A DNA stretch of 64,000 bases from Anaerolineales bacterium (GCA_016785015.1 JADHTJ010000007.1:4615-68614), one strand, 5' to 3'. Numbered from the stretch's first letter, positions 21,987 to 62,318 are shown. Program-made: numbers and translations. The notes: generated by a model from the letters alone, not told the origin.

Positions 21987-22478
21987 ATGCTAGATGATAT
22001 TGATCGTGCCATTATTGCGCATTTGCAATATGACGGCCGCGCCCCCTACACCAAGATCGCCAAAGAATTAGATATTACCGAGGGTTCGGTCAGGCGCAGG
22101 GTCAAACGGTTGGTTGACGAAGGGGTTATGCAAATTGTGGCTATTGTCGAGCCGCAAGAATTGGGTTGGCATGAAGCCGGCATGATCGGCATCAATGTGC
22201 AGGCACATCGCATTCAAGAAGTAGCTGATGCCATCGCCCAATTACCCGAAGTATCTTATCTTTTCCAGGCTGCCGGGGAGTTCGATCTCTTTGCAGAGGT
22301 CTATTGCAAAGATCGTCAACACTTTGTCTCTTTCTTGAATAACAAATTACAGAAAGTGTCCGGGGTGGAACGCACGCAATCATTCTTGATTCTCAAGATG
22401 CATAAATTATCCTATCGCTGGGGTGAAGCAGAGCCGCCCTTTGCCGAACATTTCCAAACCAACAATCCAACTGAATAG
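21987..22478 (+). CDS. Lrp/AsnC family transcriptional regulator
   Basis: HTH: LDDIDRAIIAHLQYDGRAPYTKIAKELDITEGSVRRRVKRL, plus a C-terminal RAM/AsnC_trans_reg domain. Confidence 0.9.
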   Translation: MLDDIDRAIIAHLQYDGRAPYTKIAKELDITEGSVRRRVKRLVDEGVMQIVAIVEPQELGWHEAGMIGINVQAHRIQEVADAIAQLPEVSYLFQAAGEFDLFAEVYCKDRQHFVSFLNNKLQKVSGVERTQSFLILKMHKLSYRWGEAEPPFAEHFQTNNPTE

Positions 22479-22501
22479 AATTATGGAGCAAGAAATCTTT
22501 G

Positions 22502-23926
22502 ATGCATTGGAATCAAACCTCTGACGAAATTGCTAATTTGGTTCATCGTAAATCCGTTGAAATCCTCTCCGAAGTTGGTTTCAGTGTGCCTGATTCCGAA
22601 ACACTGGCAAAATTGAAGTCTGCGGGATTTCTCGTAGATGATGAGTCTCAAATGGTTCGCATCACAAAGGATCTCTTGGATGAAGCCCTACATACCTTGC
22701 CGCAAAACGTCAAACTCTATCGGCGAGGCAGTCAAGTTGGTTTGGATTTCAAGAGCCGCTCGCATTTCATGGGCGCAGGCACTCCGGTGAATGTGCAAGA
22801 TTTGGATACCGGAGAACGCCGCGCCGCGACCCGTCAGGATGTGCGCGATTTTGTAACCCTGCAGGATGCCTTATTCCAGGTGGATATTGTGCGCCCTACC
22901 GTGACTGCTACGGACATGGGCGAAGGATCTGATCTAATCGAAATTGCCGAACTGTTGAGATTTACCCAGAAGCCGATTGTCCACCGCACTTTATCACCCG
23001 ATAGAGTGGATGCAGCGGTAGCGATGCTGGCAGCTGTTGCCGGGGGAGAGAAAAGCCTAAGGGAGTATCCAAATTTTGCTACCCTTTATTGCCCAATCAG
23101 CCCGGCCTATTTCACCGAGGAGAATATCCAGTGTATGCTGCGCTGGGCTCATCATGGTGTGCCGATCACCTTGCTTAGTATGGCTATGGGCGGTGCATCA
23201 GCCCCGGCGACTCTGTTGGGGGAGTTAGTCGTCATCAATTTAGAAATTTTGGCCTGGATGATTGTGCTGCAAATCTTGTTCCCTGGCACGCCGTTGTTGT
23301 ATGGCAGCGTCTCCAGCGTGCTGGACATGCGTACAGGCATATTGCCCCTGGGTGCCCCCGAAAGGGGTATGATCAACAGCGGCGCGGCAATTATGGCCAA
23401 TTTTTATGGCATTCCTTCGATGTGTGGTGGGCTGTCCACGGACGCCAAAGAAGTGGATGTGCAGGCTGGTTTTGAAAAATCGGTCACAGCATTTCCATTG
23501 TTGGTCGAGGGAGCAAGTATTATCTACGGGGTGGGGGCGGTGGATGCTGGGTCAGCGATTTCGTATTCCCAGATGGTCATGGACAACGAGTTGATTGCAG
23601 GATTGCGACGCATGATGGAAGGCATTACGGTTCATGATCTGGATGAGGAAATTGAGCTGATCAAGGCCAATATCCCGCGTGGCAATTTCTTGAAAGAGAA
23701 ACATACCCGCAGAAATTACAAACGGCATTGGCAGCCAGAACTACTGAATAAAGATGCCTATGAAACCTGGGTAGTAGATAGGGTGCAAGTTGCTGAGAAG
23801 AGCAGGCTGAAAGCTAAAGACATCCTGGTCTCTCACCAGCCACTTTGCTTGCCTGCAGAGGTAGAAGCGGAGATCGAACGGATATTACGTAAACATCTGG
23901 CACCAGATTTTGCCCTGAATAAATGA
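22502..23926 (+). CDS. MttB-superfamily (trimethylamine methyltransferase-like, non-Pyl) methyltransferase, divergent paralog
   Basis: COG5598-like architecture. N-terminal ..VEILSEVGFSV and C-terminal GNFLKEKHTRRNY motif. No in-frame TAG. Confidence 0.8.
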   Translation: MHWNQTSDEIANLVHRKSVEILSEVGFSVPDSETLAKLKSAGFLVDDESQMVRITKDLLDEALHTLPQNVKLYRRGSQVGLDFKSRSHFMGAGTPVNVQDLDTGERRAATRQDVRDFVTLQDALFQVDIVRPTVTATDMGEGSDLIEIAELLRFTQKPIVHRTLSPDRVDAAVAMLAAVAGGEKSLREYPNFATLYCPISPAYFTEENIQCMLRWAHHGVPITLLSMAMGGASAPATLLGELVVINLEILAWMIVLQILFPGTPLLYGSVSSVLDMRTGILPLGAPERGMINSGAAIMANFYGIPSMCGGLSTDAKEVDVQAGFEKSVTAFPLLVEGASIIYGVGAVDAGSAISYSQMVMDNELIAGLRRMMEGITVHDLDEEIELIKANIPRGNFLKEKHTRRNYKRHWQPELLNKDAYETWVVDRVQVAEKSRLKAKDILVSHQPLCLPAEVEAEIERILRKHLAPDFALNK

Positions 23927-24119: not shown

Positions 24120-25571
24120 ATGATTACCATTGAACCTATTCAATCAAAAATCCATCTTGAAGTTTTGACTCCCGATCAATTGGCGGAGATCAAAACGGCT
24201 ACGCTGCATGTTTTAGCCGAAGTTGGTGTGAAATTTCCTTCAGAGAAAGCGCTGAAAACCTTTGCCGAGCATGGCGCGCAGGTCGACTTCGAGAGCAGCA
24301 TCGTGCGCATGTCCCCAGAGTTTGTGTTGGATGCTATTACGAAAGCGCCGCGCCAATACCTTCTATCTGGGCGCGCAGAAGGAACGGATTTGCATCTTGG
24401 AAGCGGAAATTCGTATTTCGCCACGGATGGCTGTGGTCATGAAACCGTCGATTTCGAAACCGGAGAGCGGCGGCTTTCTTGCAAAGAAGATGTTGCCAAA
24501 ATGGCGCGTGTGTCCGATTATCTCTCCTCGATTGCATTCTTCTGGCCGATGGTCAGCGCTCAAGATTATGGGAAGTTAGCACCTCTTCATGAGATGGATG
24601 CCGCCTTCAATAATCTGACTAAGCACGTTCAGACTGAAACGGTCATGGGCGAGCCGATGGCTCGATACGCTGTTGAAATGGCTACGGTGATCGCTGGAGA
24701 CATGCAAACCCTCCGGGAACAGCCGCCCCTCTCGAGCCTGGTTTGTACCATAGCTCCATTGGGACAGGATAAAGAAGGCATTGAAGGTGCCATGGTGTTC
24801 GCAGCCGCAGGTATTCCCGTTGGCTTTATGGGCATGCCCAATATGGGCTCTACGGCTCCTGCAGTCCCGGGAGGGGCTTTGGTTGTCGGTAACGCTGAGG
24901 CTGTCAGTGCTATGGTGCTAATGCAGTTAGTCTCCCCGGGAGCACCAGTCTTCCAGGCCTTGTTAGTTTCAGGTATGAATCCCCAATCGGCGGATTATAT
25001 TGTCAGTTCGCCTGAGAAATATCTTTGCAATGCGGCTGCGGTACAGATGGCCCACGATTGGGGCGTGCCCTCTCTTGCTGGGACATTTGGAGTCGACGCC
25101 CCCGAGCCGGACACCTGGCAGTTGGGGCGGGACAGCGTCTATACCGCGTTGATGAGCGCCCTGTCAGGGACAGATATTACGATTGGATTGGGGATGCTGA
25201 AAGCCTCAACATTACTTGTCCCCGAACAAATCATCTTCGATGATGAGATCTATCACACCAACCGCATCCTGGGCCAGGGTTTGGATACCACTCCCAAGGG
25301 TTTGGGGTTGGATGTGATTGCTGCGGTCGGTTCCGATGAGCATTACCTGGCGCAGAAACATACCCGAAAACATCTTCGCCAGCGTTGGATTCCCAAATTG
25401 ACTCACCCTTTGCCATCGATGGATGCTTCCCCATTACCAGATATTCGCCAGCGAGCCAGAGCTGAATTTGATCGTATTTTGTCTGAACACCAACCTGAAC
25501 CCCTCAGCAGTAATCAACAGAAGGAATTAAATAAAATCTTGCAAGCGGCTGAAAAAGAACTTGGTACGTAA
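24120..25571 (+). CDS. MttB-superfamily (non-Pyl) substrate:corrinoid methyltransferase
   Basis: LTPDQLAEIKTATLHVLAEVGVKFPSEKALKTFAEHGAQVD, MARVSDYLSSIAFFWPMVSAQD and HYLAQKHTRKHL motifs. ATG 24120 aligns with the paralog N-termini (the ORF-track TTG at 24105 is less likely). Confidence 0.9.
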   Translation: MITIEPIQSKIHLEVLTPDQLAEIKTATLHVLAEVGVKFPSEKALKTFAEHGAQVDFESSIVRMSPEFVLDAITKAPRQYLLSGRAEGTDLHLGSGNSYFATDGCGHETVDFETGERRLSCKEDVAKMARVSDYLSSIAFFWPMVSAQDYGKLAPLHEMDAAFNNLTKHVQTETVMGEPMARYAVEMATVIAGDMQTLREQPPLSSLVCTIAPLGQDKEGIEGAMVFAAAGIPVGFMGMPNMGSTAPAVPGGALVVGNAEAVSAMVLMQLVSPGAPVFQALLVSGMNPQSADYIVSSPEKYLCNAAAVQMAHDWGVPSLAGTFGVDAPEPDTWQLGRDSVYTALMSALSGTDITIGLGMLKASTLLVPEQIIFDDEIYHTNRILGQGLDTTPKGLGLDVIAAVGSDEHYLAQKHTRKHLRQRWIPKLTHPLPSMDASPLPDIRQRARAEFDRILSEHQPEPLSSNQQKELNKILQAAEKELGT

Positions 25572-25871: not shown

Positions 25872-26213
25872 TTAACAGGCCATATAAACTTTGCGAATGG
25901 TTTCAATCACATGACTGGTGCCGCACCAGCCCTTGCGCAAATATAGGGCATCCCCGGCTTTAACCTCATATTCATCGCCTTCATCCCCGATCAGCTTCCA
26001 ATGCCCCTGCAAGATAAAGCAAAATTCGTCGCTTTCCCTTTCCATACGATATTTCCCTGGGGAGCACTGCCAAATCCCGGCATCGCGCCCGGCATCATCA
26101 GCAAATATCTCCATCCAGGCTGTTGATGGTGCTGTGTCTTCCAAGGCTTGGGGATGCACACCCGTATCTTCTAAAACTTGTTCCATGGCTTGTTTTATGA
26201 CAGGTAGTTTCAT
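25872..26213 (-). CDS. Cupin domain protein (DUF861/cupin_3-like)
   Basis: 113 aa. GIWQCSPGKY..ESDEFCFILQGHWKL..GDEYEVKAGDALYLRKGW is typical of small EutQ/DUF861 cupins. Confidence 0.65.
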   Translation of the reverse strand: MKLPVIKQAMEQVLEDTGVHPQALEDTAPSTAWMEIFADDAGRDAGIWQCSPGKYRMERESDEFCFILQGHWKLIGDEGDEYEVKAGDALYLRKGWCGTSHVIETIRKVYMAC

Positions 26214-26228
26214 GATCTTCTCCTAAGA

Positions 26229-27953
26229 TTATTCTGTTGAATGAACCAATTGCCCCTCAAAAAAGGTCATTTCAATTTGGGTAGTAGGTATCTCTTCGAT
26301 ATCGATCTCAAATAGATTTTGATCAAGAACGACCAGATCGGCCAATTTTCCCACCTCGATAGAACCGATGTCTTCATTGAGAAAATTCGCATAGGCGCCA
26401 TTTAGGGTCGAAGCCACAAGCATATCTTTGAGACTCGCCCGTTCATCAAGCGGTGGCAACACCCCTAAATCACCGGGTTTCAGTTCAGCATCAGGATCGG
26501 ATATCGAGCGATAGTTGGATTTCCCCCCATAATCCCGATCAAACACGAGCTGAGGCATTCTGCGGGTCATGCCACAATAAATCGCTACCAAGGGTTCTGG
26601 TTCGGTGACAAAGAAATCGCTGGCAATGGTTACGTTAACCCCAGCTTTGAATAGACTATTGAACGGATACTGTTGGTAAAAAGCCCGTTCGTGCCCCAGA
26701 TATGGCAGGTTCAATTTCCAGAAATAATCGTCGATGATCATCCAGTAGGGACTCGTGTGAACGCTGATGCCCAGGTCGCCCATGCGTTTAATGTCTTTCG
26801 GCCGCGCCAATTGCAGATGGGCGAATGAATGCCGCGCATCCCGCTTCCCATTCACATCTTGGGTGAATTCAAGCGCATCCAGGGTGTATTGCGCGGCAGC
26901 ATCTCCTATCACATGAACGTGGATCTGATACCCCGCAGAATCAATTTGCGAGAACGCATCTTGAAGAATATCATCACCCCAAACCTTGATGCCATACCAG
27001 TCATCGTCCCGGTGCGCGTATGGTTCCAGCAACAATCCGGTTTCTTCCTCGGTAACATGATCCGCAAAAAATTTGAAAGAATGCGCCTTGAAATGTGGGT
27101 GAGTAAATCTCTTGGACAGTGCTTTCCCCTGATCGATCTGTGCGGCAACGTCGCCTTCCGGTGAAATGTTCCAGGAGGCGCGATAGCGTACGGTCAACTT
27201 TCCATCTTGAGCGAGTTCATCATAAGCTTCAATGATATGGTGTTCCTCGATACCCAACATGGCCTCGTGGACAGTTGTGATCCCCTTTGCGTTAAGCCAT
27301 CCCTGTAGCCAAAGCAGCGAATTCTTGATTTGTTCCTTTGGAGGTTCTGGGATATGTTGGGCGACAAGGTTCATGGCCCCTGGTTCCTGGAGCAACCCAG
27401 ATGGCTCACTGGTTTTGGGGTCGTGTTTTATTACGCCTTCCTGGGGTTGTGGGGTGTCTTTGTCAATATTGGCGATTTCAAGAGCTTTCGAGTTGACCCA
27501 CATTGAGTGACCGTCTGTGGATGTAATGACAATCGGCCGCACAGAGTCAATCTCGTCCAGCCACTCTTTGCGAGGGCCAATTTCATCAAATGCAGAGCGC
27601 GAATAACCGCCGCCAACGATCCATGGCGCATCTGAATTCTTTGCGGCATATTGACGTACAGCGTTGAGATAGGCCTGGATTTGATCCTCGCCGGTTACAT
27701 CAAAGAGACCCAATCCGTACTGGTATATATGTGCGCTTTGGGCGGGGTGCATGTGGCTGTCCACAAAAGCTGGCAGAACCATTTTGCCATCCAGATCGAT
27801 CACAGTTGTATCCGGACCGATATATGCTTCGACATCAGTATTCGAACCGACAAAGAGTATTTTTCTATCGGCAATCGCAATGGCCTGAGCCCAACTGAGA
27901 TCTGAATCGACAGTGTAGACAGCAGCGTTTTTTAGAACCAGGTTTGCTTTCAT
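26229..27953 (-). CDS. Amidohydrolase family protein (Amidohydro_3 / YtcJ-like metal-dependent hydrolase)
   Basis: LKNAAVYTVD.., PAFVDSHMHP (HxH metal site), HVHVIGDAA, and a C-terminal GSIEVGKLADLVVLD. ATG 27953 lies 1 nt from the upstream stop. Confidence 0.85.
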   Translation of the reverse strand: MKANLVLKNAAVYTVDSDLSWAQAIAIADRKILFVGSNTDVEAYIGPDTTVIDLDGKMVLPAFVDSHMHPAQSAHIYQYGLGLFDVTGEDQIQAYLNAVRQYAAKNSDAPWIVGGGYSRSAFDEIGPRKEWLDEIDSVRPIVITSTDGHSMWVNSKALEIANIDKDTPQPQEGVIKHDPKTSEPSGLLQEPGAMNLVAQHIPEPPKEQIKNSLLWLQGWLNAKGITTVHEAMLGIEEHHIIEAYDELAQDGKLTVRYRASWNISPEGDVAAQIDQGKALSKRFTHPHFKAHSFKFFADHVTEEETGLLLEPYAHRDDDWYGIKVWGDDILQDAFSQIDSAGYQIHVHVIGDAAAQYTLDALEFTQDVNGKRDARHSFAHLQLARPKDIKRMGDLGISVHTSPYWMIIDDYFWKLNLPYLGHERAFYQQYPFNSLFKAGVNVTIASDFFVTEPEPLVAIYCGMTRRMPQLVFDRDYGGKSNYRSISDPDAELKPGDLGVLPPLDERASLKDMLVASTLNGAYANFLNEDIGSIEVGKLADLVVLDQNLFEIDIEEIPTTQIEMTFFEGQLVHSTE

Positions 27954-27954
27954 C

Positions 27955-28572
27955 CTATTCCCTTTCACCAACTACAAACACACCATCTTCTGGCTGTACC
28001 GTGACTGTTTCTTGACCCTCACTCAAAACGAGTAAGAAGCCACGCCGGCCATTATTAAGAAATTGGAGTGTGGCTTTTAACTCTGTCGCAGGAAGACGTT
28101 CATGCTGACTCTTGGCAACAAAGTGGCTGAACTCCTCGCACGGAGGGGCGAAACTGACAAAATCTAACAGCGCTCTTTGCCCGGTCTCCGCGCTCTCGAT
28201 GGCGATCTGCCCCCCGAGATCCTCCACCCAAACTTCCTCGGCATATTCGATAATGATGTTTTCACCGGCGCTACCATCGACCATGTGTTCCCCAAAACGT
28301 TCTCTCATTGCATCATAATGAGATGTAAAGCCAATGGATACAAGATCGTCATCATCATAGGCTTTATCAGGGTGGTTGATGTGGTGAATATCGAGTACAT
28401 GCTCTCCCTCAGGGGTGATTGCCTCGATGCCTAAGGATGAGATCAGCAAGCGTTCTACTTCGACGCGCCTGGTGACGTCGTAAAAGTAGCCTGAAGGTGT
28501 TTCAATGATCAACCCGTTCGGTTGCACTTGGACCATTTTCACGCTGCCAAGTTGGCGGTCATTTTCAGCCAT
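27955..28572 (-). CDS. MOSC-like beta-barrel domain protein (tentative)
   Basis: DGSAGENIIIEY...IAIES...FAPPCEEF resembles the MOSC GENl...PC pattern. Weak call. Confidence 0.4.
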   Translation of the reverse strand: MAENDRQLGSVKMVQVQPNGLIIETPSGYFYDVTRRVEVERLLISSLGIEAITPEGEHVLDIHHINHPDKAYDDDDLVSIGFTSHYDAMRERFGEHMVDGSAGENIIIEYAEEVWVEDLGGQIAIESAETGQRALLDFVSFAPPCEEFSHFVAKSQHERLPATELKATLQFLNNGRRGFLLVLSEGQETVTVQPEDGVFVVGERE

Positions 28573-28655
28573 TATTGATAATCCTTTCTTAATACAAGTC
28601 TGCCTAACTTTAAATAATTGGGCAGACTTGTTTCATTCTAAGCAACACGGCAATA

Positions 28656-29144
28656 TTAGCCCTTCCCCGATTCTTGCAAGGCTTTGATGATTTCGTCTTG
28701 GTGTTCTACAGCATGTTCGATCATATATTCAACCAATGTGGCGATGCTGCCGCGTTCATCCCCCCAAGGATAGAGCATATCTCCGGGAAACTGATCTTCG
28801 GGAATTTCCTGAACAGCTTTCTTCAATTCACCATGGGCTTGTTCCCACTCAGCTAAGATTTGCTGAGTAGATAACTTTTTCTGCTCTACAACAGCTCTTT
28901 CATTATATTCAGTTTCTTCCTCGTCTAGATCGGGGATTGAATATTCTGACCCTTCCTGATACGCGCGCAAGGATTTAGCTGTCTCCTGATCCCAAGTCGC
29001 AATATGCCCAATAATATCCCTGATCCTCCAACCCGAATCGGTGAATACGGGCATTTCCAGATCGACTTCATCCAAGGTTGCACGGGTCGCAATGTGGGCC
29101 TTGGCTAATAGTTTAATCAGGCGTTTCTTTTCTTCAGCTGACAT
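28656..29144 (-). CDS. DinB-superfamily four-helix-bundle protein
   Basis: WRIRDIIGHIATWDQE and EYMIEHAVEHQDEI are His-rich helices typical of DinB_2/ClbS-like proteins. Confidence 0.6.
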   Translation of the reverse strand: MSAEEKKRLIKLLAKAHIATRATLDEVDLEMPVFTDSGWRIRDIIGHIATWDQETAKSLRAYQEGSEYSIPDLDEEETEYNERAVVEQKKLSTQQILAEWEQAHGELKKAVQEIPEDQFPGDMLYPWGDERGSIATLVEYMIEHAVEHQDEIIKALQESGKG

Positions 29145-29325: not shown

Positions 29326-31806
29326 TCAGCAGCGGACCCTTAGAAGCTTGGGATCATACAATGGTCTGAGAGACACTTTTGCAGGATAGCGCACTCCCGC
29401 AATGTCAATTTCATAGGATCCGCTCTTGATGTAATCAACACTGACGGTTTCTCCCTCATTCTCAACCGGACCGACACCGACGGATGCACCTAATGTGTGG
29501 CCATAACCGCCTGCCATAATATAGCCGACGGGCACACTATCTCGGTAGATGATCTCACCGTAATACAGCATGGGTTCTGGATCCTCGAGCAGGAACTGCG
29601 GCATGCGATATCTGTAGCCGGATTCTTTCAGTTTCAGCAGCGCCTCTCGCCCAATGAACCCGCCGGGTTTATCGAAGTCCACGAAGTATCCTAAGCCAGC
29701 TTCCAAAGGCGTATCGGTATTATCGATATCGCCGCCATAATCGCGATAGGCTTTCTCTAAGCGCAGTGTATTGAGTGCCTGTAACCCAATGTGTTTGAGC
29801 CCGAAATCGGCTCCCGATTTCACGAGGGTGTCGAAAACATGCAATGAAAACTCTGTTGGGATGTAAAGCTCCCAACCCAATTCGCCCACATAGGTCACTC
29901 GGATAGCTTTGACAAGTGCGTAGCCGATGTCAATTTCTTGCATAGTGAGAAAAGGGAAGGCTTCATTGGATAAATCTGTATGCGTGATACTGCTCAAAAA
30001 TTCACGCGATTTAGGTCCCTGTATATTGAGCACGCTATATGCCGAAGAGATATTGGTTACGAAAGCGTGCGCATCCGCGGGGATGTGGCGTCTCAACCAG
30101 GCCAGCACTGCTGTCATGGTGCCATCCCCGGTTAGGATCAGAAATTGATCTTCGGCCAGGCGCGTGACGGTTAGATCGGCCTCTATGGTGCCAGTTTCAT
30201 TACACCATTGGGTGTAGACAACTTTGCCCACGGGTACGGCCACATTATTGGCACAGATGCGGTTGAGATATTTTTCTACATCGCGACCCTGTACCAGGAT
30301 TTTGCCCATCACCGAATAGTCCAGCATGGTGACGTTTTCACGAGTGGCATGATGCTCAGCAGCGCTGTACTCGAACCAGTTCTGCCGCCCCCAGGAATAT
30401 TCAACTTTAGGTTCAACCCCTTTGGGGGCGAACCAGTCCGGGTATTCCCAGCCGGCATATTCACCAAAGTAAGCGCCGGCTTCGACCAATCTGTTATGGA
30501 AGGCGGATTTGCGCACATTGCGGGCGGTTTTAAAGTGCTTATTTGGGTATCCATCTTCGAATATTAACCCAAGCAATTCCACTGCACGGTCTTTTAAATA
30601 TGTAGGTGTGTTTTGGTAAGGTAGCATACGGGCAATATCGATCTCGGTGACATCGACATCTGGCACACCATCGACAATCCACTGAGCCATCACTTTCCCA
30701 GCTCCGCCGCCCATGAGAATACCAAGGGAATTGAAGCCCGCCGCAACATAGAAATTATCTAATTCTGGCACCAATCCCATCATGGGGCCTAAATCTGGCG
30801 TAAAACTCTCTGGCCCGCAGAAGAATTTGTGAATACCAGCATTTTCCAGCGCTGGAATTCGCTGCATGGCTTCTTCAATATATGGCATCATGCGGTCCCA
30901 ATCGGGATTGATTTCGCCAAAAGTGAAGTTCTTTGGGATGCCATCCAGCGCCCATGGGGCTGCCACAGGCTCGAACAGGCCGAACAACACGCCCCCCACT
31001 TCTTCACGGTAGTAGGCGTATTTATCCAGGTCAACCAAAACGGGCAATTTCGGATTTATGCCCTCAATCGACTCGGTGATTAAGTAGTAATGTTCTGTGG
31101 GCTGCAAAGGAATATTGACACCCGCTAACTTGCCGATCTGGTGTGCCCACATCCCTGCACAATTGACTACATACTCGGCCTGGATCTCGCCCTTATCGGT
31201 GATGATTGCGGATACCCGCTGATCTTCTTTCGTGATGTCGGTAACAGTAGTTTCTTCGAAAATCTGGACGCCGCCCATGCGTGCGCCTCTGGCCAACGCC
31301 ATCGTTACATCGATGGGATTAACGCGGCCATCGCTGGGAGTATAGAAACCTGCCAGAATATCGTCAGTATAGGCTAGCGGCCAGATTTCCTTAATTTGAT
31401 TGGGGGTTATTTCTTCCATCGCAACGCCAAAATGGCGATCAAAAGCGGCAACCCGACGTAATTCTTCCAGCCTATCGGGCGAGGTGGCTAAATTAATCAT
31501 CCCCACATCTTTATAGCCCGTTGCCAATCCTGTTTCTTTTTCCAGAGAGCTATATAGATCCAGGGTATATTTTGCCATTTCAACCGAAGTTGCGTCGAAA
31601 AAGCCACCCGCCTCTACCAAGCCTGCTGCATGCCAGGTGGTTCCGGCGGTGAGCTGGGCGCGTTCTAAGAGGACAATCTCTTTCCAGCCGAGTTTTGCGA
31701 GATGGTAGGCAGTACTGCACCCAATCACACCACCGCCTATGATCACGACCCGAGCTTGCGAAGGAATTTTGCTATTCGTTCTTTCCTCTGTCTGTTTTTC
31801 CGGCAT
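29326..31806 (-). CDS. Dimethylglycine/sarcosine dehydrogenase-like flavoenzyme (DAO FAD domain + GcvT folate-binding domain)
   Basis: VVIIGGGVIGCSTAYHLAKLGW..GTTWHAAGL, with a C-terminal aminomethyltransferase-like region (TYVGELGWELYIP). 826 aa. Confidence 0.9.
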   Translation of the reverse strand: MPEKQTEERTNSKIPSQARVVIIGGGVIGCSTAYHLAKLGWKEIVLLERAQLTAGTTWHAAGLVEAGGFFDATSVEMAKYTLDLYSSLEKETGLATGYKDVGMINLATSPDRLEELRRVAAFDRHFGVAMEEITPNQIKEIWPLAYTDDILAGFYTPSDGRVNPIDVTMALARGARMGGVQIFEETTVTDITKEDQRVSAIITDKGEIQAEYVVNCAGMWAHQIGKLAGVNIPLQPTEHYYLITESIEGINPKLPVLVDLDKYAYYREEVGGVLFGLFEPVAAPWALDGIPKNFTFGEINPDWDRMMPYIEEAMQRIPALENAGIHKFFCGPESFTPDLGPMMGLVPELDNFYVAAGFNSLGILMGGGAGKVMAQWIVDGVPDVDVTEIDIARMLPYQNTPTYLKDRAVELLGLIFEDGYPNKHFKTARNVRKSAFHNRLVEAGAYFGEYAGWEYPDWFAPKGVEPKVEYSWGRQNWFEYSAAEHHATRENVTMLDYSVMGKILVQGRDVEKYLNRICANNVAVPVGKVVYTQWCNETGTIEADLTVTRLAEDQFLILTGDGTMTAVLAWLRRHIPADAHAFVTNISSAYSVLNIQGPKSREFLSSITHTDLSNEAFPFLTMQEIDIGYALVKAIRVTYVGELGWELYIPTEFSLHVFDTLVKSGADFGLKHIGLQALNTLRLEKAYRDYGGDIDNTDTPLEAGLGYFVDFDKPGGFIGREALLKLKESGYRYRMPQFLLEDPEPMLYYGEIIYRDSVPVGYIMAGGYGHTLGASVGVGPVENEGETVSVDYIKSGSYEIDIAGVRYPAKVSLRPLYDPKLLRVRC

Positions 31807-40550: not shown

Positions 40551-40563
40551 AGGGAGTTGAGCG

Positions 40564-49818: not shown

Positions 49819-49846
49819 AACATAGAGACTATCGTTCGTTTAAATA

Positions 49847-49876: not shown

Positions 49877-49892
49877 GTATATAGGAGTGAGT

Positions 49893-50933: not shown

Positions 50934-50954
50934 TTGAGAGTTACAACAAACCTT

Positions 50955-51916: not shown

Positions 51917-53371
51917 ATGTCTACATCACAAACAATTATTACGCCAATTAAAACCGATTTGAAGCTTAACTGCCTGACGGATGAACAGCTCAGTCAGTTG
52001 CAGGAAGCCACACTCCAAATTTTGGAGACCGTGGGTGTGAAATTCCCTTCGGACAAAGCCATGGCCATATTCGAAGAGCATGGCGCTCAGGTTGACAGGG
52101 AGACTCAAATTGTCAGGATCCCGCGCGAGCTGGTCATGCAGGCCATGTCCACGGTGCCGCGTTATTTCACCTTAGGAGCTCGTAACCCTGAGCTCGACTT
52201 GCAATTGCAAGACGGTGTCACTTTCTTTACTAATGACGGCTGTGGTCACGATGTCGTTGATTCCAAAACAGGCGAACGACGAGCATCTACAAAAGCTGAC
52301 GTAGGTATGATGGCGCGGATCAATGATTACCTGTCATCTATGTCATTTAGTTGGACCATGGTTAGTGCTCAGGATTGTGGTGTTACCTCCCCCCTTCATG
52401 AGATAGATATTACCTGGAGAAACAATACAAAACACTATCAGAGTGTTACGATGATGGGTGAGGAGATTTGTCGCTACGGGGTGGAAATGGCAACTGTGCT
52501 GCGAGGAAGCATAGAAGAGGTGCGACAGCGTCCGCCAATATCATTAATTGTTTGCTCCATTGCACCTCTAGTTCAAGATAAAGAGGCAATTGAAGGGGCG
52601 CTGGTTTTAGGGGAAGCTGGAATCCCAATAGTGGTGATGTCTATGCCGACCATGGGAACAACGGCCCCTGCCACATACGCCGGAGCACTGGCAGTTGGGG
52701 ATGCAGAAGTTATCAGTGCCACAGTGTTGATGCAATTGGCCAATCCTGGAGCGCCCGTGTTTCATTCAATCTTGCACGCTTGGGCTGACCCCCGCACGGC
52801 TGCGTATGTTGGCTATCCATTGGATTCACGCGCCCGCTATGCTCCGGTTGAAATGGCTCATCATTGGGGAATGCCTGCTCTTGGCGGGGCGTTTGGTACT
52901 GAGAGCCCTGAGCTGGATAGTTGGCAATCGGCTGCCGAAGTCGCCACAGATCCGCTCCTGGTAGGATTGGCTGGGGCTGAAATCGTAACCGGTATTGGTT
53001 TGCGGGATTCTTATACATTGCTCTACCCTGAAGCTATCATCCTTGACGATGATCTTCTCCATCAGGCGCGTTATTCCTTGCTTAATATGGAAGTCAGTCC
53101 AGAAACCCTGGCCATCGATGTGATTTCTAAAGTTCAGCCGGGTGGGCACTTCTTGAGCCAAAAGCACACTCGCAAACACATGCGCACAGCAATGGTGCGC
53201 GGTGTATGCCACCAATTGGATTCAGAGGGAAAGTATCGTCATCCAGTTGAATACGCACGCGAGAAAGTTACATGGATATTAAAGAATCATCATCCGGAAA
53301 CACCCTCAGCAGAGGTGCAGAAAGAAATCAACCGGATTTTGGAAACAGCTGATAAAGAGCTAAAAGGGTAA
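51917..53371 (+). CDS. MttB-superfamily (non-Pyl) substrate:corrinoid methyltransferase
   Basis: EEHGAQVD, MARINDYLSSMSFSWTMVSAQD, GHFLSQKHTRKHM. Confidence 0.9.
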   Translation: MSTSQTIITPIKTDLKLNCLTDEQLSQLQEATLQILETVGVKFPSDKAMAIFEEHGAQVDRETQIVRIPRELVMQAMSTVPRYFTLGARNPELDLQLQDGVTFFTNDGCGHDVVDSKTGERRASTKADVGMMARINDYLSSMSFSWTMVSAQDCGVTSPLHEIDITWRNNTKHYQSVTMMGEEICRYGVEMATVLRGSIEEVRQRPPISLIVCSIAPLVQDKEAIEGALVLGEAGIPIVVMSMPTMGTTAPATYAGALAVGDAEVISATVLMQLANPGAPVFHSILHAWADPRTAAYVGYPLDSRARYAPVEMAHHWGMPALGGAFGTESPELDSWQSAAEVATDPLLVGLAGAEIVTGIGLRDSYTLLYPEAIILDDDLLHQARYSLLNMEVSPETLAIDVISKVQPGGHFLSQKHTRKHMRTAMVRGVCHQLDSEGKYRHPVEYAREKVTWILKNHHPETPSAEVQKEINRILETADKELKG

Positions 53372-53376: not shown

Positions 53377-54768
53377 GTGTATTCATTGCAGTCAGCCTTA
53401 TCCGAAGGTGATGTCAAACGCATCCACGAGCACAGCCTGGATGTGCTTGAGAATGTTGGCATCGACTACAAGACTCCCAAGGCACTAGAAATCCTGGAAG
53501 AGCGGGGTTGTCGTGTTGACTATGACCGAAACTGGGTTTCTATCTCTCCAGACCTGGTAGAGTGGGCCATTGATCAGGCACCACGCGATGTGCTTCTTTC
53601 TGCCCGTGATCCTGAGCGCGATGTTCTGTTAGATGGAAAAAGCTCACACCATACAACCGACAGCCAGGGCACCCAGGCGACAGATTTTGAAACCGGTAAA
53701 GTCCATGATTCTGGCGCCGAGGACCTAAAGAAGATGCTGCTTGTCGCTGATGTGCTGGATAAGGTTGAAATCGTCAATGTGACTGTTTCAGCAAGCGACA
53801 TCCCTGCCCACTTACGTACGATTTATCACTTTGCCCAGGCATTTACCCTGACGAGTAAGCACGTGCGCACGGGGGTGCTCAATGCACAGCAAGTGCAATT
53901 CCTGGTTGAGCTTGTTAAGGCTGTGACTGGAAATGATGCCTTCAGACCGATCTTCTCCGTTGTAGATTGCACCATCTCTCCTTTAATGCACGATGGTCCC
54001 ATGACCGAAGCATGCATCGAATTGGCCAAGCTTAATGTCCCTATTATGGTTTATCCCATGCCTCTGGCTGGCGGAACTTCACCCGTCACGCTTGGGGGCA
54101 CTATGTTGATGCATAATATCGAATTCCTGAGTGGATTGGTACTCTTCCAATGTACCAACCCGGGTGCGCCGATAATTTATGGGACGGGCTCGTCACAGTT
54201 GGATATGAAGACGGGTCGCTACGGGGGCAGCGCCGATGGCTATGGGGTTGGGGCAGCATTGATCAATCTGGCCCGCCTCTATGATCTCCCAGCAAACCTG
54301 GGAGGCACATCGACCAAATCAAAACAGCTCGATGCTCAATATGGATATGAAGCTCTGGCGGCAACGATGCTGTCTTATCTGGCGGGTGCCGATGAAATCT
54401 ACAGCGTGGGGTTGTTGGGCGCGGCTCAAATCCTGTCATTGGACAAGATGGTTTTGGATAACCATATCATTCACCAGCTTGAAGCCATGTTGAGGCCTAT
54501 TAATTTGGATGAAGATCACCTTCAAGCAGAATTGATCAAGCAGGTTGGCATTGGAGGAGAATTTCTCACGCAGAGGGAAACCTTGAAATATACCCGCACA
54601 GAATATGTCCCCATTTGGCCGCCCCATGGAGTGGATTTGCTGGATATGATCCACGCCGAGGCGCAGGAAATCCTTGAGACTCATACCCCACCCCCTCTAC
54701 CAGATGGGGCAGAAACGCGCATTCAAGAAATTCTAGATGAAGCGGATAAGGCATTAGTTGACAAATGA
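53377..54768 (+). CDS. MttB-superfamily methyltransferase, divergent paralog
   Basis: GTG start. IHEHSLDVLENVGIDY and GGEFLTQRETLKYTR. Overall collinear with the MttB fold, with no in-frame TAG. Confidence 0.8.
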   Translation: MYSLQSALSEGDVKRIHEHSLDVLENVGIDYKTPKALEILEERGCRVDYDRNWVSISPDLVEWAIDQAPRDVLLSARDPERDVLLDGKSSHHTTDSQGTQATDFETGKVHDSGAEDLKKMLLVADVLDKVEIVNVTVSASDIPAHLRTIYHFAQAFTLTSKHVRTGVLNAQQVQFLVELVKAVTGNDAFRPIFSVVDCTISPLMHDGPMTEACIELAKLNVPIMVYPMPLAGGTSPVTLGGTMLMHNIEFLSGLVLFQCTNPGAPIIYGTGSSQLDMKTGRYGGSADGYGVGAALINLARLYDLPANLGGTSTKSKQLDAQYGYEALAATMLSYLAGADEIYSVGLLGAAQILSLDKMVLDNHIIHQLEAMLRPINLDEDHLQAELIKQVGIGGEFLTQRETLKYTRTEYVPIWPPHGVDLLDMIHAEAQEILETHTPPPLPDGAETRIQEILDEADKALVDK

Positions 54769-57955: not shown

Positions 57956-57972
57956 ATTTGTATGGAGAAATA

Positions 57973-59421
57973 ATGGCCAACACAACACCTGCCATCGAAC
58001 CTATTGTTCCAGCCTATCGTATTCGTATCCTTAGCGATGATCAACTGGAAAAATTCAAAACGAACACCTTTGAAATTCTCCAAGAAGTTGGCATTCATTG
58101 CCCGTCGGAAAGGGCATTGAAGATATATGCAGAACATGGTGCCAATGTTGATTTCGAATCCAAAATTGTCAAAATGTCTCCGGACGTTGTCTTGGAAGCC
58201 CTCTCTCATGCACCTCGCTATTACACAATGGGAGGGCGTACAGAAGCTTTCGACCTGGATCTGTCAAAAGGCGTTACGTATGAAGCGACAGATGGAACCG
58301 GCACCACGACCATTGACTATGATACCGGTGAAAAGCGTTCATCGATCAAAGACGATGTGGCCAAGTCTGCCCGAATAGCAGATTATCTTTCATCGGTCAG
58401 CTTTTATTGGCCCATGGTCAGCGCGCAAGATCACCCAGCGACGCCTTCTCTTCACGAATTAGATGCCTCTTTCAATAATACGCTCAAGCACGTCCAAACC
58501 CCCACAGTTGTTGAGGAAGTAACAACGCGTTATGCAATCGAAATGGCCAAAGTCATCGCTGGGAATGAGGCCACAATGCGGGCGCGCCCGCCGCTCTCGC
58601 TGTTGATTTGCACGATTTCCCCATTAGCACAGGATGCTGAAAGCATGGATGCGGCCCTTGTCGCTGCAAAAGCAGGCATCCCGGTTGGCTTTATGGCCAT
58701 GCCCAACACCGGTTCCACATCGCCTGCTACCATCGAAGGCACAATTTCCGTAGGCGATGCGGAAATGGTATCGGCCATGGCGCTGATCCAGATGGCGTAT
58801 CCCGGCGCGCCAATCTATTATTCTTTCATGCCTGGGCTGACGCACCCACGCACTGGGGCCTATTTGGGCCACGAGGCTACCATATACGCTGTTGGCGTCG
58901 AGTTAGCGCATATGTGGGGCGTGCCCACGCTTGCGGGAACCTTTGGAGGGGGCGCAACATACCCAGGTTGGGAATCGACCATGGGGGGAGGCGTGGCATC
59001 CCTGCTATGCGCCTTATGTGGAGGAGAAACCGGTAGCGGTATGGGGCTGCTAAAAGGCAGCACGCTGCTTTATCCAGAAGGCCTGGTTTTGGATGCCGAG
59101 CTCTATCACAACGTACGGCACAATGCAGGCGGTGTAGATACCAGCTCAGATAAAATGGCGCTGGATGTGATCAAAGCAGTGGGGCAGAGAGGCCATTACC
59201 TGGGCCAGCGCCATACGCGTGATTTCATGCATAAATTTGATTTCTCGGATGTGGTTTATGTCCCCGAAAAGGATGGCGCTTACCGAGACCCCATTGAAGT
59301 GGCCAGGGAGAAAACCAATTGGATCCTGGAGAATCATCATCCTGAACCCCTCGAGCCTGAGAAAAAGGCTGAGTTGGATAAGATCCTTCAGAAAGCAGAT
59401 GCGGAGCTGGGAGGAAAATGA
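57973..59421 (+). CDS. MttB-superfamily (non-Pyl) substrate:corrinoid methyltransferase
   Basis: ATG 57973 aligns with the paralog N-termini. AEHGANVD, SARIADYLSSVSFYWPMVSAQD, GHYLGQRHTRDFM. Confidence 0.9.
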   Translation: MANTTPAIEPIVPAYRIRILSDDQLEKFKTNTFEILQEVGIHCPSERALKIYAEHGANVDFESKIVKMSPDVVLEALSHAPRYYTMGGRTEAFDLDLSKGVTYEATDGTGTTTIDYDTGEKRSSIKDDVAKSARIADYLSSVSFYWPMVSAQDHPATPSLHELDASFNNTLKHVQTPTVVEEVTTRYAIEMAKVIAGNEATMRARPPLSLLICTISPLAQDAESMDAALVAAKAGIPVGFMAMPNTGSTSPATIEGTISVGDAEMVSAMALIQMAYPGAPIYYSFMPGLTHPRTGAYLGHEATIYAVGVELAHMWGVPTLAGTFGGGATYPGWESTMGGGVASLLCALCGGETGSGMGLLKGSTLLYPEGLVLDAELYHNVRHNAGGVDTSSDKMALDVIKAVGQRGHYLGQRHTRDFMHKFDFSDVVYVPEKDGAYRDPIEVAREKTNWILENHHPEPLEPEKKAELDKILQKADAELGGK

Positions 59422-60857
59422 AAACTCAAATCCAGGTTCTTTCAGAGCAGGAAAAGCACCGGGTGCATGAATCCACCCTGAAAATTCTGGCCAATACTGG
59501 GGTCAGAGTTGAAACGGCGCTGGGTCGCAAGTACCTGGCTGATGCCGGCGCGCAGGTTGATGAATCTACCAGAATCGTCAAATTTCCGCGAGATTTCGTC
59601 GAAGAATGCCTCCAGCTCGCGCCTCGGGAGTACACCCTGGGTGCCCGCCGTCCTGGTTGGAATTTACAGATGAACACCGGTGAATGTGTGCTGATGATCG
59701 ATGGTTCGGCGCCTACAGTGTTGGATCATGGTCAGGTCGAATCGCGCCCCGGGCAATTTGATGATTGGCTCAACGCCACCAGGCTGACCGATGTCATGGA
59801 TGATTTTGGTGTTTATTGGGGGATGGTCGAGGCCAACGATAGCGGCGAAGGCATGGATGAGTTGGTCAATTATTGGCGGCATTTATTTAGCAATTTCTCC
59901 AAACACATTCAAGATGGCATCGAGGACAAAGATGCCGCGCCCTGGCTGCTGGAAGCGCTGCAGGTCGTCTTTGGCGATAAGGAAACCATTCGCCGCACGC
60001 ATCCTTATTCTTTCCTAATTTGCCCGCAATCACCGCTGACTATTGACGAAGTGTACACCGATGCCTATCTGGCATTGGTGGGCTATGACATCCCTGTGGC
60101 GATCATGCCCATGCCCTTGATGGGTGGCACCGCCCCGGGAAATATGATCTCCACCACCATTCAGGGCAACTGCGAAGTTATCTCCACCCTGTGCTTGCTC
60201 CAGGCCGCCGCCCCAATGACGCCCATCATCTACGCCCCCGCGCTGGCCACTATGGATCCCCGCACGGGATTATATGGCGCTGGCCGTATTGAGAATGGCA
60301 TCTTAAGCATGGCATGTGTGGAGATGGGTAAGTATTATGGTTTGCCAGTGGAAGGGTCTGGTGGGGGAACCGACCATTATATTCCCAGCATTCAAGCTGG
60401 ATATGAAAGAGCCATTTCGGCTGTGTTACCCATTTTATCCTGGCCGGATTTATTGGTGGGTGCCGGTTTGATGGGTGGTTCTATGGTTTTGAGCTTGGAG
60501 CAGTTAATCATTGATGTGGAAGTTTTTCGCATGAGCAAACACACCGCCAGGGGTATCGATTGCGCAGAAGAAGCCTGGCTGGACGACGTGATTGCGAACG
60601 TAGGCCCCGGCGGACATTACCTTGAGGAAGATTCAACCATCAAGGCCATGCGCGGGGGAGAGTATTATCACCCCCAAATTGGGCATCACGGCCCCTTCGA
60701 TTCCTGGCTGGATGGCGGGCAGCCTGATCTGTTAGAAGAAGCTCACCAGCGAGTTCAAACATTGTTAGCTGAACATAATCCCTTACCGCTTCCACCCGAT
60801 GTAGAAGCGGAGTTGATCCAACTGCAAGGACGGGCCGCAGAGTTAGCGGCAGCTTGA
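59418..60857 (+). CDS. MttB-superfamily methyltransferase, divergent paralog
   Basis: ATGA overlap with the upstream gene. VHESTLKILANTGVRV, ADAGAQVD, GGHYLEEDSTIKAMR. Confidence 0.8.
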   Translation: MKTQIQVLSEQEKHRVHESTLKILANTGVRVETALGRKYLADAGAQVDESTRIVKFPRDFVEECLQLAPREYTLGARRPGWNLQMNTGECVLMIDGSAPTVLDHGQVESRPGQFDDWLNATRLTDVMDDFGVYWGMVEANDSGEGMDELVNYWRHLFSNFSKHIQDGIEDKDAAPWLLEALQVVFGDKETIRRTHPYSFLICPQSPLTIDEVYTDAYLALVGYDIPVAIMPMPLMGGTAPGNMISTTIQGNCEVISTLCLLQAAAPMTPIIYAPALATMDPRTGLYGAGRIENGILSMACVEMGKYYGLPVEGSGGGTDHYIPSIQAGYERAISAVLPILSWPDLLVGAGLMGGSMVLSLEQLIIDVEVFRMSKHTARGIDCAEEAWLDDVIANVGPGGHYLEEDSTIKAMRGGEYYHPQIGHHGPFDSWLDGGQPDLLEEAHQRVQTLLAEHNPLPLPPDVEAELIQLQGRAAELAAA

Positions 60858-60869
60858 GGAGGAATCTCT

Positions 60870-62318
60870 ATGTACATCAATGGAGAATATACAACTGGTA
60901 AATCGACTGAACGCATCCCGATTATCAATCCGGCGACAGAAGAGATCTTGGAGGAAGTGCCGCGCGGTACGCCTGAAGATGCTGTCGCCGCAGTCGAAGC
61001 AGCGGGAGCAGCTTTCCAAATTTGGAAGCGGATGCCTGCCAACGAGCGTGCGGCTGCCTTGCATGAGGTGGCGACGAAAATCCGCGCCCACCATGATGAG
61101 ATCGTACGCCTGCTGACGCAAGAGGAAGGCAAGCCCATCCCTGAGCATGAGGAAGAGCTCTGGTGGGTGGAGGAGACATTCGATTATTATGCCGAATTAG
61201 CCCGCCACGAGCGCGGCCGGGTGATCCCTCCGGGAGAGACGGGCCAGTTTAACTTTGTGATCAAAGAGCCTTATGGCGTGGTGGCCTGCATTGTTCCCTG
61301 GAATTACCCGCTCTTGCTGCTGGCCTGGAAAATGGCCCCGGCACTGGCTGCTGGTAACACAATAGTGATTAAACCTTCCGAGCTGACACCGCTTGCCACA
61401 TTGAAGCTGGTCGAGGTGGCCTGCGACCACTTACCCCCTGGGGTTGTCAATGTGGTCACGGGCTTTGGTCCTGAGGTTGGCGAACCCTTAGTCACGCACC
61501 CTGATGTGCCGGTGATCGCCTTTACTGGCTCGCTGGCTGTGGGACAGAGAATTGCCTCGTTGACCGCGCCGATGATGAAGAAACTGCACCTGGAATTGGG
61601 CGGCAAAGACCCTATGGTCATCGCGCCCGATGTGGCCATGGATCAGGCGGTCAGCGGCTTGGCCTATTCGGCGCTGCTCAATACGGGGCAAGTCTGCACC
61701 AGCACAGAGCGGGTATATGTGCACGAGAGCATCATGCCCCAGTTCAGTGAAGAACTGGCCGATTTCGTCGGTAAATTGCGTTTGGGTAACGGCCTGGATG
61801 ATGACACAGATATCGGGCCGATGATCCGCGATAAGTTCCGCGTCAAGGTCGAGGAGCAGTTATCTGAGGCAGTTGCAGCGGGAGCAAAGACCCTCATTGG
61901 GGGGCAGCGACCACCCCAAATATCGAAAGGTTTCTTCCTGACTCCGGCTGTGGTGACTAACGTCGATCACAGTATGCGCTTGATGACCGAGGAGACCTTT
62001 GGGCCGGTCATCCCCCTGATGCCTTATAAAGATTTTGACGAGGCTATCCGTCTGGCGAATGACTGCAAATATGGTTTGGGCGCTTGCCTGATGACCTATG
62101 ATGCCCGGCTAGTCAAGCGTTTCTTCGAAGAGGTCAAAGCGGGCACCATCTGGATTAATGATCCCCTGACTGACAATTTTGCCGGACCCTTCGGTGGTAT
62201 GAAGATGAGCGGACTGGGACGAGAGCTTGGGCAGGAAGGCTTAGATGAATTCTACGAAGTTAAGCATGTTCATTGGGATATCGAAGGTGGCGTGAAAGAC
62301 TTCTGGTATCCGTATTAG
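60870..62318 (+). CDS. NAD(P)+-dependent aldehyde dehydrogenase (aminoaldehyde/betaine-aldehyde-type)
   Basis: RBS gaggagg. Motifs IVPWNYPLL, KPSELTPL, ELGGKDP and catalytic GQVCTSTER. Confidence 0.9.
   Translation: MYINGEYTTGKSTERIPIINPATEEILEEVPRGTPEDAVAAVEAAGAAFQIWKRMPANERAAALHEVATKIRAHHDEIVRLLTQEEGKPIPEHEEELWWVEETFDYYAELARHERGRVIPPGETGQFNFVIKEPYGVVACIVPWNYPLLLLAWKMAPALAAGNTIVIKPSELTPLATLKLVEVACDHLPPGVVNVVTGFGPEVGEPLVTHPDVPVIAFTGSLAVGQRIASLTAPMMKKLHLELGGKDPMVIAPDVAMDQAVSGLAYSALLNTGQVCTSTERVYVHESIMPQFSEELADFVGKLRLGNGLDDDTDIGPMIRDKFRVKVEEQLSEAVAAGAKTLIGGQRPPQISKGFFLTPAVVTNVDHSMRLMTEETFGPVIPLMPYKDFDEAIRLANDCKYGLGACLMTYDARLVKRFFEEVKAGTIWINDPLTDNFAGPFGGMKMSGLGRELGQEGLDEFYEVKHVHWDIEGGVKDFWYPY

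Follow-up and report, generated by a model that had tools for sequence, protein, structure and literature searches.

Six substrates of MttB-superfamily methyltransferases are known, and all of them are acidic quaternary amines except trimethylamine, which the pyrrolysine (Pyl) enzyme MttB handles as an adduct (PMC12155760). Eubacterium limosum has 42 MttB paralogs that do not contain pyrrolysine, of which MtpB, MtcB and MtyB all use the corrinoid protein MtqC, the second methyltransferase (MT2) MtqA and the activase RamQ (PMC12155760). In Ruegeria pomeroyi the mtgB, mtgC, mtgD, ramA and DUF1638 genes are dispersed, and up to seven pfam06253 open reading frames (ORFs), for which diverse methylated substrates have been proposed, are found per genome (Mausz et al. 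2025, PMC12478193). Here we analyse a 64,000-nucleotide stretch of DNA (the window) from an Anaerolineales bacterium (GCA_016785015.1, JADHTJ010000007.1:4615-68614), in which positions 21,987 to 62,318 form an island of eight MttB-family genes and one corrinoid protein gene. The island is probably one half of a canonical methyl-transfer system, made up of substrate-specific first methyltransferases (MT1), corrinoid proteins, MT2 and a RamA-type activase and distributed over at least two loci of a marine Anaerolineales (Chloroflexota) genome; we put the probability of this reading at roughly 0.8.

The ORFs of at least 100 aa in the window were scanned against Pfam. Exactly eight full-length genes of the MttB family (PF06253, MTTB) were found, here called M1 to M8 (Table 1), with E-values of 3e-52 to 9e-78 over nearly the whole profile. 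None of the eight ORFs contains an internal stop or an in-frame UAG codon, as had been read in a preliminary description of the stretch made from the sequence alone, and the starts given there for the seven plus-strand genes are each a correct ATG. The longest ORF at M3 (31808-33409) begins with GTG and runs into the upstream aldehyde dehydrogenase gene; alignment with the paralogs places the predicted true start at the ATG at 33268. Pairwise identity is 43-61% among M2, M3, M4, M5 and M7, the core group, as against 24-31% between M1, M6 or M8 and all other window paralogs, which agrees with the earlier division into five similar and three divergent proteins. The motifs that had been quoted as shared by the five are present, with small deviations (DHGA in M3, VSSKE in M4 and SAR in M7). 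In phmmer searches of the PDB, M1, M2, M6 and M8 matched MttB and MtgB structures over approximately residues 6-485 with E-values of 1e-48 to 1e-63, and M1, M6 and M8 matched Methanosarcina barkeri MttB equally well as MtgB or slightly better. Scores on TIGR02369, the equivalog model of Pyl-MttB, were 303-402 bits for the eight proteins, under the cut-off of 525, and the column of Pyl334 in the M. barkeri structure 7XCL holds Gly or Ser in all of them.

Both tblastn and Pfam gave exactly eight MttB genes and exactly one corrinoid gene in the window, the latter in line with the earlier count of a single DxHxxG protein. The motif reads DLHEIG, and the closest solved structures, 1Y80 (2e-53), MttC 7XCN_M (2e-50) and MtmC 3EZX, are all methyltransferase corrinoid proteins. 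On the NCBIfam model of MtgC, NF047995, the protein scores 223 bits, under the cut-off of 310, and on TIGR02370 it is borderline (214.6 bits against 215.3); its similarity supports no more than a general assignment as a corrinoid partner of methyltransferases. An identical protein is encoded on contigs of the NCBI metagenome-assembled genome (MAG) GCA_014384465.1 and of several ENA and Logan assemblies. A TTG at 47365 was considered as the start of this ORF and rejected, as it is absent from public records, where the called gene begins at the ATG at 47386. The corrinoid gene is the first of twelve genes (47386-62318) spaced -4 to 57 nt apart, and is followed by SBP_bac_5, two permeases, M5, M6, two agmatine-deiminase-like genes, an N-carbamoylputrescine-amidase-like gene, M7, M8 and an aldehyde dehydrogenase. 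This spacing is consistent with one operon, holding four MT1 genes.

The window was searched for partner genes by six-frame tblastn, with the genome's own MT2, DUF1638, RamA and second corrinoid protein and a relative's URO-D protein as queries. No pterin-binding methyltransferase, RamA, DUF1638 or URO-D-type gene was found in any frame of the window (all such matches had E > 0.4), and the partner genes were likewise not found in the 10 kb downstream. Together with the Pfam scans, these searches bear out the earlier statement that the window holds no MtgA/MtqA-like or RamA-like gene. A search of the genome for homologs of both types, as had been proposed in the preliminary description, found them at a second locus in the same two NCBI MAGs. 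This locus, seen on ENA contigs and on contigs JACNFU010000095 and JACNFU010000345 of GCA_014384465.1, encodes five further MttB proteins, two corrinoid proteins, MT2, DUF1638 and RamA. The order in its first half is Fer4, MttB (481 aa, opposite strand), a racemase-like gene, MttB (480 aa), MttB (X13, 476 aa), Pterin_bind (291 aa) and GntR, and in its second half corrinoid (211 aa), MttB (486 aa), corrinoid (213 aa), DUF1638, MttB (500 aa), a hydantoinase-like gene and RamA (527 aa). The Pterin_bind protein (PF00809; MBC8503573 / MBL6981063) scores 313 bits on NF005719 (methyl-tetrahydrofolate:corrinoid methyltransferase), above the cut-off of 259. The RamA protein (P0122; Fer2, Raco_middle and RACo_C_ter domains) is deposited as MBC8505697.1 / MBL6981055.1. 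The genome totals are at least 13 MttB paralogs and at least three corrinoid proteins, plus MT2, DUF1638 and RamA.

Genes that follow shortly after the window's end have the accessions MBC8505964/66 and MBL6980074-78, among them the aldehyde:ferredoxin oxidoreductase (MBC8505964.1 / MBL6980076.1); those of the second locus are MBC8503412-14, MBC8503573 and MBC8505697-98, and consecutively MBL6981055 to MBL6981063. The MBC and MBL series are common to both loci, so that each of the two MAG submissions includes the island as well as the second locus. Coverage in ERZ24794644 also matches, at 6.3 and 7.2 for the island contigs and 6.6 and 5.6 for those of the second locus. P0122 was found by a homolog search with the RamA of a relative, L026, followed by matching of the NCBI accession series; ranking 120 RamA matches by identity to the relatives' RamA did not pick out the genome's own copy. 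One such match, P0002, is 85% identical to the L026 protein and was rejected as belonging to another population, near Ca. Desulfolinea. A 667-aa gene of the hydantoinase/oxoprolinase family (Hydant_A_N + Hydantoinase_A; L147:7886-9889) lies between MttB and RamA on all contigs recovered for the population. A pyruvate:ferredoxin oxidoreductase gene is found near the second locus and, with the aldehyde:ferredoxin oxidoreductase gene, suggests that the host is apparently anaerobic.

The partners therefore seemed to be missing owing to the window's end and are encoded elsewhere in the genome. The preliminary description had been headed by a single corrinoid protein lacking both a methylcorrinoid:tetrahydrofolate (THF) methyltransferase and an activase, and had allowed for partners either encoded elsewhere or replaced; the heading does not extend to the genome, and the first of the two explanations was correct. 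That MT2 and activase are dispensable for the island, with the CWC protein or the GcvT flavoenzymes taking their place as methyl acceptors, would fit the lack of partner genes in the 64-kb window and the next 10 kb. We nevertheless consider it highly improbable. The same MAGs encode the complete set of MT2, DUF1638 and RamA, and in relative L026 RamA and MT2 stand beside a syntenic module. GcvT domains, as in DMGDH and SARDH, take formaldehyde-level C1 units from flavin-dependent amine oxidation and are not methylcobalamin-dependent methyltransferases. The DAO+GcvT fusions of the island are ordinary enzymes of the dimethylglycine/sarcosine-dehydrogenase type, serving oxidative demethylation after removal of the first methyl group, and the CWC ORF encodes an 82-aa Cys-rich protein similar to neither function.

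The arrangement in relatives was surveyed by fetching 80 loci that surround corrinoid-gene orthologs and clustering their ORFs. MttB genes were present at 64 loci (170 ORFs) and Lrp genes at 44. Pterin_bind was present in just 7 of the 80 and RamA (Raco_middle + RACo_C_ter) in just 4, and separation of the partners from the corrinoid/MT1 module is therefore the norm in this lineage. In L026, with 86% identity between its corrinoid protein and that of the window, RamA, an unassigned ORF and Pterin_bind lie divergently upstream of the series Lrp, MttB, corrinoid, SBP5, permease, permease, MttB, MttB, MttB, DAO; this amounts to the module of the window joined by its partner genes. A pattern-based locus search with the L026 RamA (exact 8-residue patterns) recovered neither the nearest relatives nor CP070708.1, a closed relative, and its misses are not evidence of absence.

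Several other features of the related loci were recorded. An ORF of approximately 230-250 aa, ending in CxxCxxxxxC, lies between Pterin_bind and RamA in relatives (L026:6006-6755 on the minus strand, L145:2029-2724 and five more). It has no Pfam match, and its identification as DUF1638 was rejected (no BLAST match, hhalign probability 0.1%); it may be an accessory of the activase. URO-D family (MtaA/MtbA-like) genes near corrinoid genes in three relatives (L018:18765-19811, L046:6919-7914 and L051:7442-8503) suggest that part of the lineage has a different kind of MT2. MAGs assigned to other phyla also encode corrinoid proteins with 68-77% identity to that of the window, namely at L038 and L100 (Zixibacteria MAG), L073 (Deltaproteobacteria MAG, closed chromosome) and L092 (Acidobacteriota MAG). 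Their occurrence points either to mis-binned sequences in the draft MAGs or to a module that has been transferred horizontally.

Combining these observations, we infer a flow of methyl groups in which each of the eight MttB proteins would act as a substrate-specific MT1, passing a methyl group from a methylated amine to a Co(I) corrinoid protein. The pterin-binding MT2 would hand the methyl on to THF, and the RamA-type ATP-dependent activase, with the DUF1638 protein, would repair oxidised Co(II). The second locus encodes this MT2, RamA and DUF1638, alongside five further MT1 paralogs and two additional corrinoid proteins. The neighbouring DAO+GcvT dehydrogenases, DAO oxidoreductases, agmatine-deiminase-like and amidase-like hydrolases, aminotransferases, and aldehyde dehydrogenases and oxidoreductases would break down the demethylated skeletons, and the three Lrp/AsnC proteins would control sub-modules. 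Four points weigh against this reading. The assignment of both loci to one genome rests on metagenome binning, backed by two MAG submissions, by comparable coverage and by synteny in a relative, not on a closed genome. The window corrinoid protein is just 44-47% identical to the two corrinoid proteins of the second locus, so that its cross-talk with the single MT2 is assumed. Which MT1 pairs with which of the at least three corrinoid proteins is something that we infer, and the support for the roles of the proteins is at the level of sequence rather than of biochemistry or expression.

To compare the substrate pockets, Desulfitobacterium hafniense MtgB (9YCE), M. barkeri MttB (7XCL) and the Sinorhizobium meliloti homolog 4YYC were rebuilt from printed alignments and aligned with the 13 paralogs. 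M1-M8 are 24-29% identical to MtgB, and 24-32% when MtgB and Pyl-MttB are taken together, as against 46-49% to MtgB for 4YYC and X13 (X13 49%). In MtgB glycine betaine is contacted by Y97, R312, H348 and F356, of which R312 is also conserved in MtcB, MtpB, MthB and MtyB and would bind the acidic group, and Tyr is tolerated in place of F356 (PMC13080624). None of these four residues is conserved in any of M1-M8. The R312 column holds Met in M1, Leu in M2, M3, M4, M5 and M7, Asn in M6 and Glu in M8, and its alignment is robust because the position follows a conserved G-[VLIM]-P motif. As controls, 4YYC keeps the Tyr, Arg and His, and X13 keeps R312 and H348 with Tyr at F356. X13 is the genome's one MtgB-like paralog and lies at the second locus, not in the island. 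Among orthologs the column is Met in 36 of 37 for M1, Asn in 15 of 15 for M6 and Glu in 13 of 14 for M8, and Leu in all orthologs of M2, M3, M4 and M7. The island paralogs are set apart from MtpB, MtcB, MtyB and MthB by the reported conservation of Arg312 only, not by sequence comparison.

These results bear on the substrates of the island enzymes. They could be betaine-type demethylases that bind the acid group by residues other than Arg312 and His348. The six characterised substrates all carry an acid group or, in MttB, form the pyrrolysine adduct (PMC12155760), betaines are plentiful in the sea as osmolytes (PMC12478193), and DAO+GcvT dehydrogenases typical of dimethylglycine/sarcosine catabolism stand beside M3 and upstream of M4. 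Against this, the Arg reported as conserved in MtgB, MtcB, MtpB, MtyB and MthB (PMC13080624) is replaced in all eight proteins by residues conserved within each subfamily, in an alignment that places Arg and His correctly in both controls. The MtgB-like X13 with Arg and His sits at the other locus, and one module of the island is built on agmatine-deiminase-like and N-carbamoylputrescine-amidase-like genes rather than on betaine genes. We regard betaine-type activity as possible, if doubtful. Loss of the acid-binding Arg, the conserved Glu in M8 and the agmatine-like gene context are the grounds for another suggestion, namely that at least the module with deiminase-like and amidase-like genes handles cationic amines without an acidic group. 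We advance this only tentatively; pocket residues and neighbouring genes incline us, for the island MT1s in general, towards such amines and away from classical betaines. The conserved Glu of M8 would amount to a charge reversal, which is compatible with a substrate that carries another cationic group, and candidate substrates may include methylated agmatine- or polyamine-type cations and other non-betaine onium compounds.

Orthologs at 60% identity or more were present in Anaerolineales loci for every paralog, numbering 36, 22, 17, 14, 31, 15, 14 and 6 for M1 to M8 respectively, and M4 orthologs are 76-88% identical in 11 Anaerolineales, Anaerolineaceae and Chloroflexota MAGs. Since each paralog has its own ortholog set across many Anaerolineales MAGs, the duplications appear to be old and every copy maintained; M1-M8 are best described as eight old subfamilies, each kept separately, and not as recent amplifications. 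Membership of one Pfam family and a shared island would also fit redundancy, with a single specificity, such as that for glycine betaine, present in eight isoenzyme copies to raise the dosage. This is scarcely credible given pairwise identities of 24-61%, the separate ortholog sets, pocket residues that vary between subfamilies and are constant within them, and a glycine-betaine tetrad that no paralog possesses. The eight cannot all cluster with a single enzyme such as MtgB or share identical pockets, and the preliminary description of the island as a hub of methylated-amine catabolism with several distinct MttB specificities is to that extent supported.

Gene order around the orthologs is also conserved. 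Lrp adjoins M1 orthologs in 30 of 39 cases, M1 and M2 are adjacent for 17 of 22 orthologs, M5 and M6 for 15 of the 18 M6 orthologs, and M7 and M8 for all M8 orthologs (14/14). M5 stands beside M6 or M3 in most loci and follows the permeases in 18-20 of 36. Each conserved adjacent pair (M1-M2, M5-M6 and M7-M8) consists of one core-group and one divergent paralog. Such pairs may point to heteromers or to consecutive demethylation steps. In the first case one member of each pair could be non-catalytic or confer specificity, giving about five activities instead of eight. The conserved pairing of core with divergent paralogs and the closeness of the genes (M7 and M8 overlap by 4 nt, M5 and M6 are 5 nt apart) would suit this arrangement, as would the MtgB dimer, in which the C-terminal extension of each monomer lines the active-site cavity of the other (PMC13080624). 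Adjacency may, however, mean no more than co-regulation or successive reactions of one substrate, and the characterised family members are homo-oligomers; the reduction to about five activities is in our judgement unlikely. The broader suggestion that the island subfamilies demethylate non-acidic methylated amines, each pair either forming a heteromer or removing methyl groups from one substrate in turn, is somewhat less improbable and is offered as a working idea.

The remaining genes are collected in Table 1. Over the 11,596 nt compared, the window is identical base for base to ENA contig NODE_767 (L019), which extends the island by a further 10 kb containing the DAO oxidoreductase, two class-III aminotransferases, the aldehyde:ferredoxin oxidoreductase, a saccharopine-dehydrogenase-like gene and two ABC ATPases.

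Table 1. Features of the island and its flanks, in positions of the window
Feature	Position	Strand	Evidence and remarks
Lrp/AsnC regulator 1, heads M1-M2 pair	21987..22478	+	Pfam AsnC_trans_reg + HTH_AsnC-type
M1, divergent	22502..23926	+	PF06253 E=1.8e-74; PDB 7xcm/9yce E ~2e-63
M2, core group	24120..25571	+	PF06253 E=1.3e-63; PDB matches
Cupin_3 gene, within block	25872..29144	-	Pfam
Amidohydro_3	26229-27971	-	Pfam
MOSC	27955-28572	-	Pfam
DinB/MDMPI-like	28656-29144	-	Pfam
DAO+FAO_M+GcvT fusion, dimethylglycine/sarcosine-dehydrogenase type	29326..31806	-	Pfam; NCBIfam GcvT/SoxA matches below equivalog cut-offs
M3, core group	31808..33268	-	PF06253 E=6e-59; 61% identical to M4
Aldehyde dehydrogenase	33288-34754	-	Pfam
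Class-III aminotransferase	34756-36093	-	Pfam
OCD/mu-crystallin family	36258-37247	-	Pfam; NCBIfam below cut-offs
Lrp/AsnC regulator 2, heads minus-strand operon, divergent from 38016 (+)	37363..37869	-	Pfam
Second DAO+GcvT fusion	38016/38070-40550	+	Pfam; NCBIfam matches weakly
Two DAO-family amine oxidoreductases	40564-41928, 41968-43329	+	Pfam; NCBIfam matches weakly
Small Cys_rich_CWC protein, 82 aa	43332..43580	+	PF14375 on identical gene of GCA_014384465.1
M4, core group	43669..45132	+	PF06253 E=6e-60
MFS transporter	45136..46428	-	Pfam MFS_1
Lrp/AsnC regulator 3, heads corrinoid operon	46725..47204	+	Pfam; 159 aa in public contigs
Corrinoid (cobalamin-binding) protein	47386..48033	+	B12-binding_2 + B12-binding domains; DLHEIG at residues 101-106
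ABC importer: SBP_bac_5 binding protein + two permeases	48091..51896	+	Pfam
M5, core group	51917..53371	+	PF06253 E=7e-67
M6, divergent	53377..54768	+	PF06253 E=9e-78; PDB 7xcm 5e-62
Two agmatine-deiminase-like genes	54765-55895, 55904-56989	+	PAD_porph; NCBIfam aguA 263 and 240 bits vs 381.8 cut-off
N-carbamoylputrescine-amidase-like CN hydrolase	56999-57955	+	CN_hydrolase; NCBIfam aguB 305 bits vs 410 cut-off
M7, core group	57973..59421	+	PF06253 E=3e-52; 4-nt overlap with M8
M8, divergent	59418..60857	+	PF06253 E=5e-74; PDB 7xcl 6e-55
Aldehyde dehydrogenase closing tight gene run	60870..62318	+	Aldedh E=5e-165
DAO-family oxidoreductase, 423 aa, cut by window end	62862..64000	+	Continuing contig L019

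The DAO+FAO_M+GcvT fusion next to M3 is predicted from its domains to be a THF-dependent oxidative N-demethylase. The block 38016..43329, with the second fusion and the two DAO genes, is kept beside M4 orthologs in relatives. Because their scores are well below the NCBIfam equivalog cut-offs, the deiminase-like and amidase-like proteins should be read as relatives of the agmatine pathway, and not as the pathway itself. The two ATPases (oligo_HPY) of the ABC importer sit approximately 10 kb past the end of the window on the same contig. Near the orthologs in relatives, genes of the saccharopine/carboxyspermidine-dehydrogenase type are found repeatedly, as are those for DAO oxidoreductases, class-III aminotransferases and enzymes that oxidise aldehydes. 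The three Lrp/AsnC genes, each of which had been described as heading a sub-module, were confirmed by Pfam, and Lrp is the third commonest neighbour family in the related loci. Neither a cobalamin riboswitch nor any other RNA family was detected with Rfam in the window or the second locus.

DinB, an M2-like gene and MOSC also occur as a trio in relatives L013, L014 and L018, where the DinB/MDMPI-like and MOSC genes flank M2 orthologs; in the window these two genes lie 2.4 kb from M2. MOSC proteins elsewhere are N-oxide and N-hydroxy reductases, and a tie of this MOSC gene to amine N-oxides is conceivable. Between the last aldehyde dehydrogenase and the next DAO gene is a 127-aa gene annotated as a '23S rRNA intervening sequence protein' (62405-62788; PF05635, weak bAvd similarity). 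Just beyond the ABC ATPases of the island is a 955-aa protein with a TIR domain and WD40 repeats (L019:20351 onward). Outside the island, the window encodes a 959-aa fusion protein (16907-19786, minus strand) that combines three FHA domains with an ABC ATPase and an ABC-2 permease, and two tandem ABC1 atypical-kinase genes (9446-13354, minus strand).

Anaerolineales are among the most abundant bacteria of marine sediments, where methylated amines are the main substrates of methylotrophic methanogens that are free of competition from sulfate reducers. A lineage with at least 13 MttB paralogs per genome could be a large unrecognised sink for methylated amines, and such a sink would divert methyl groups from methane. 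Eight conserved subfamilies that lack the acid-binding Arg and have suggestive gene contexts form a concrete target list for new specificities; if they do act on non-acidic amines, this would be a new substrate class for non-pyrrolysine MttB enzymes. Searches of a full-text literature library found no paper on MttB expansion in Anaerolineales or Chloroflexota and none tying MttB to agmatine deiminase.

A corrinoid protein shared by several MT1s, with scattered partners, is not an unusual arrangement and has already been described in E. limosum and R. pomeroyi. Like E. limosum, the island's host is an apparent anaerobe with many non-pyrrolysine MttB paralogs per genome, and the E. limosum system likewise has several MT1s on one corrinoid protein with one MT2 and one activase, in a three-component transfer to THF. 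The host belongs, however, to a different phylum, the island paralogs do not have the equivalent of the Arg312 reported in the E. limosum enzymes, and the MT1 genes are embedded in operons of amine oxidoreductases, agmatine-deiminase-like genes and aminotransferases with Lrp regulators. The MtgBCD system of R. pomeroyi resembles the present one in its scattered MT1, corrinoid, MT2, RamA and DUF1638 genes and in the dimethylglycine/sarcosine-dehydrogenase-type genes nearby, but R. pomeroyi-type bacteria are aerobic Proteobacteria in which MtgC and MtgD are shared with a split methionine synthase, whereas the host here is apparently an anaerobic member of the Chloroflexota. D. hafniense MtgB/MtgC/MtgA (PDB 2QNE, 9YCE) has the same fold family and the same type of corrinoid partner, but the eight island proteins, at 24-29% identity to MtgB, do not carry its glycine-betaine residues. 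M. barkeri MttB/MttC (7XCL/7XCN) is of the same family, and the window corrinoid protein matches MttC at 2e-50, but the island eight have no UAG/pyrrolysine codon and score below the TIGR02369 cut-off. What appears to be new is the lineage, together with eight uncharacterised conserved subfamilies (thirteen genome-wide), the eight of the window, set among genes that resemble those of polyamine or agmatine catabolism, having a predicted pocket unlike that of any characterised member.

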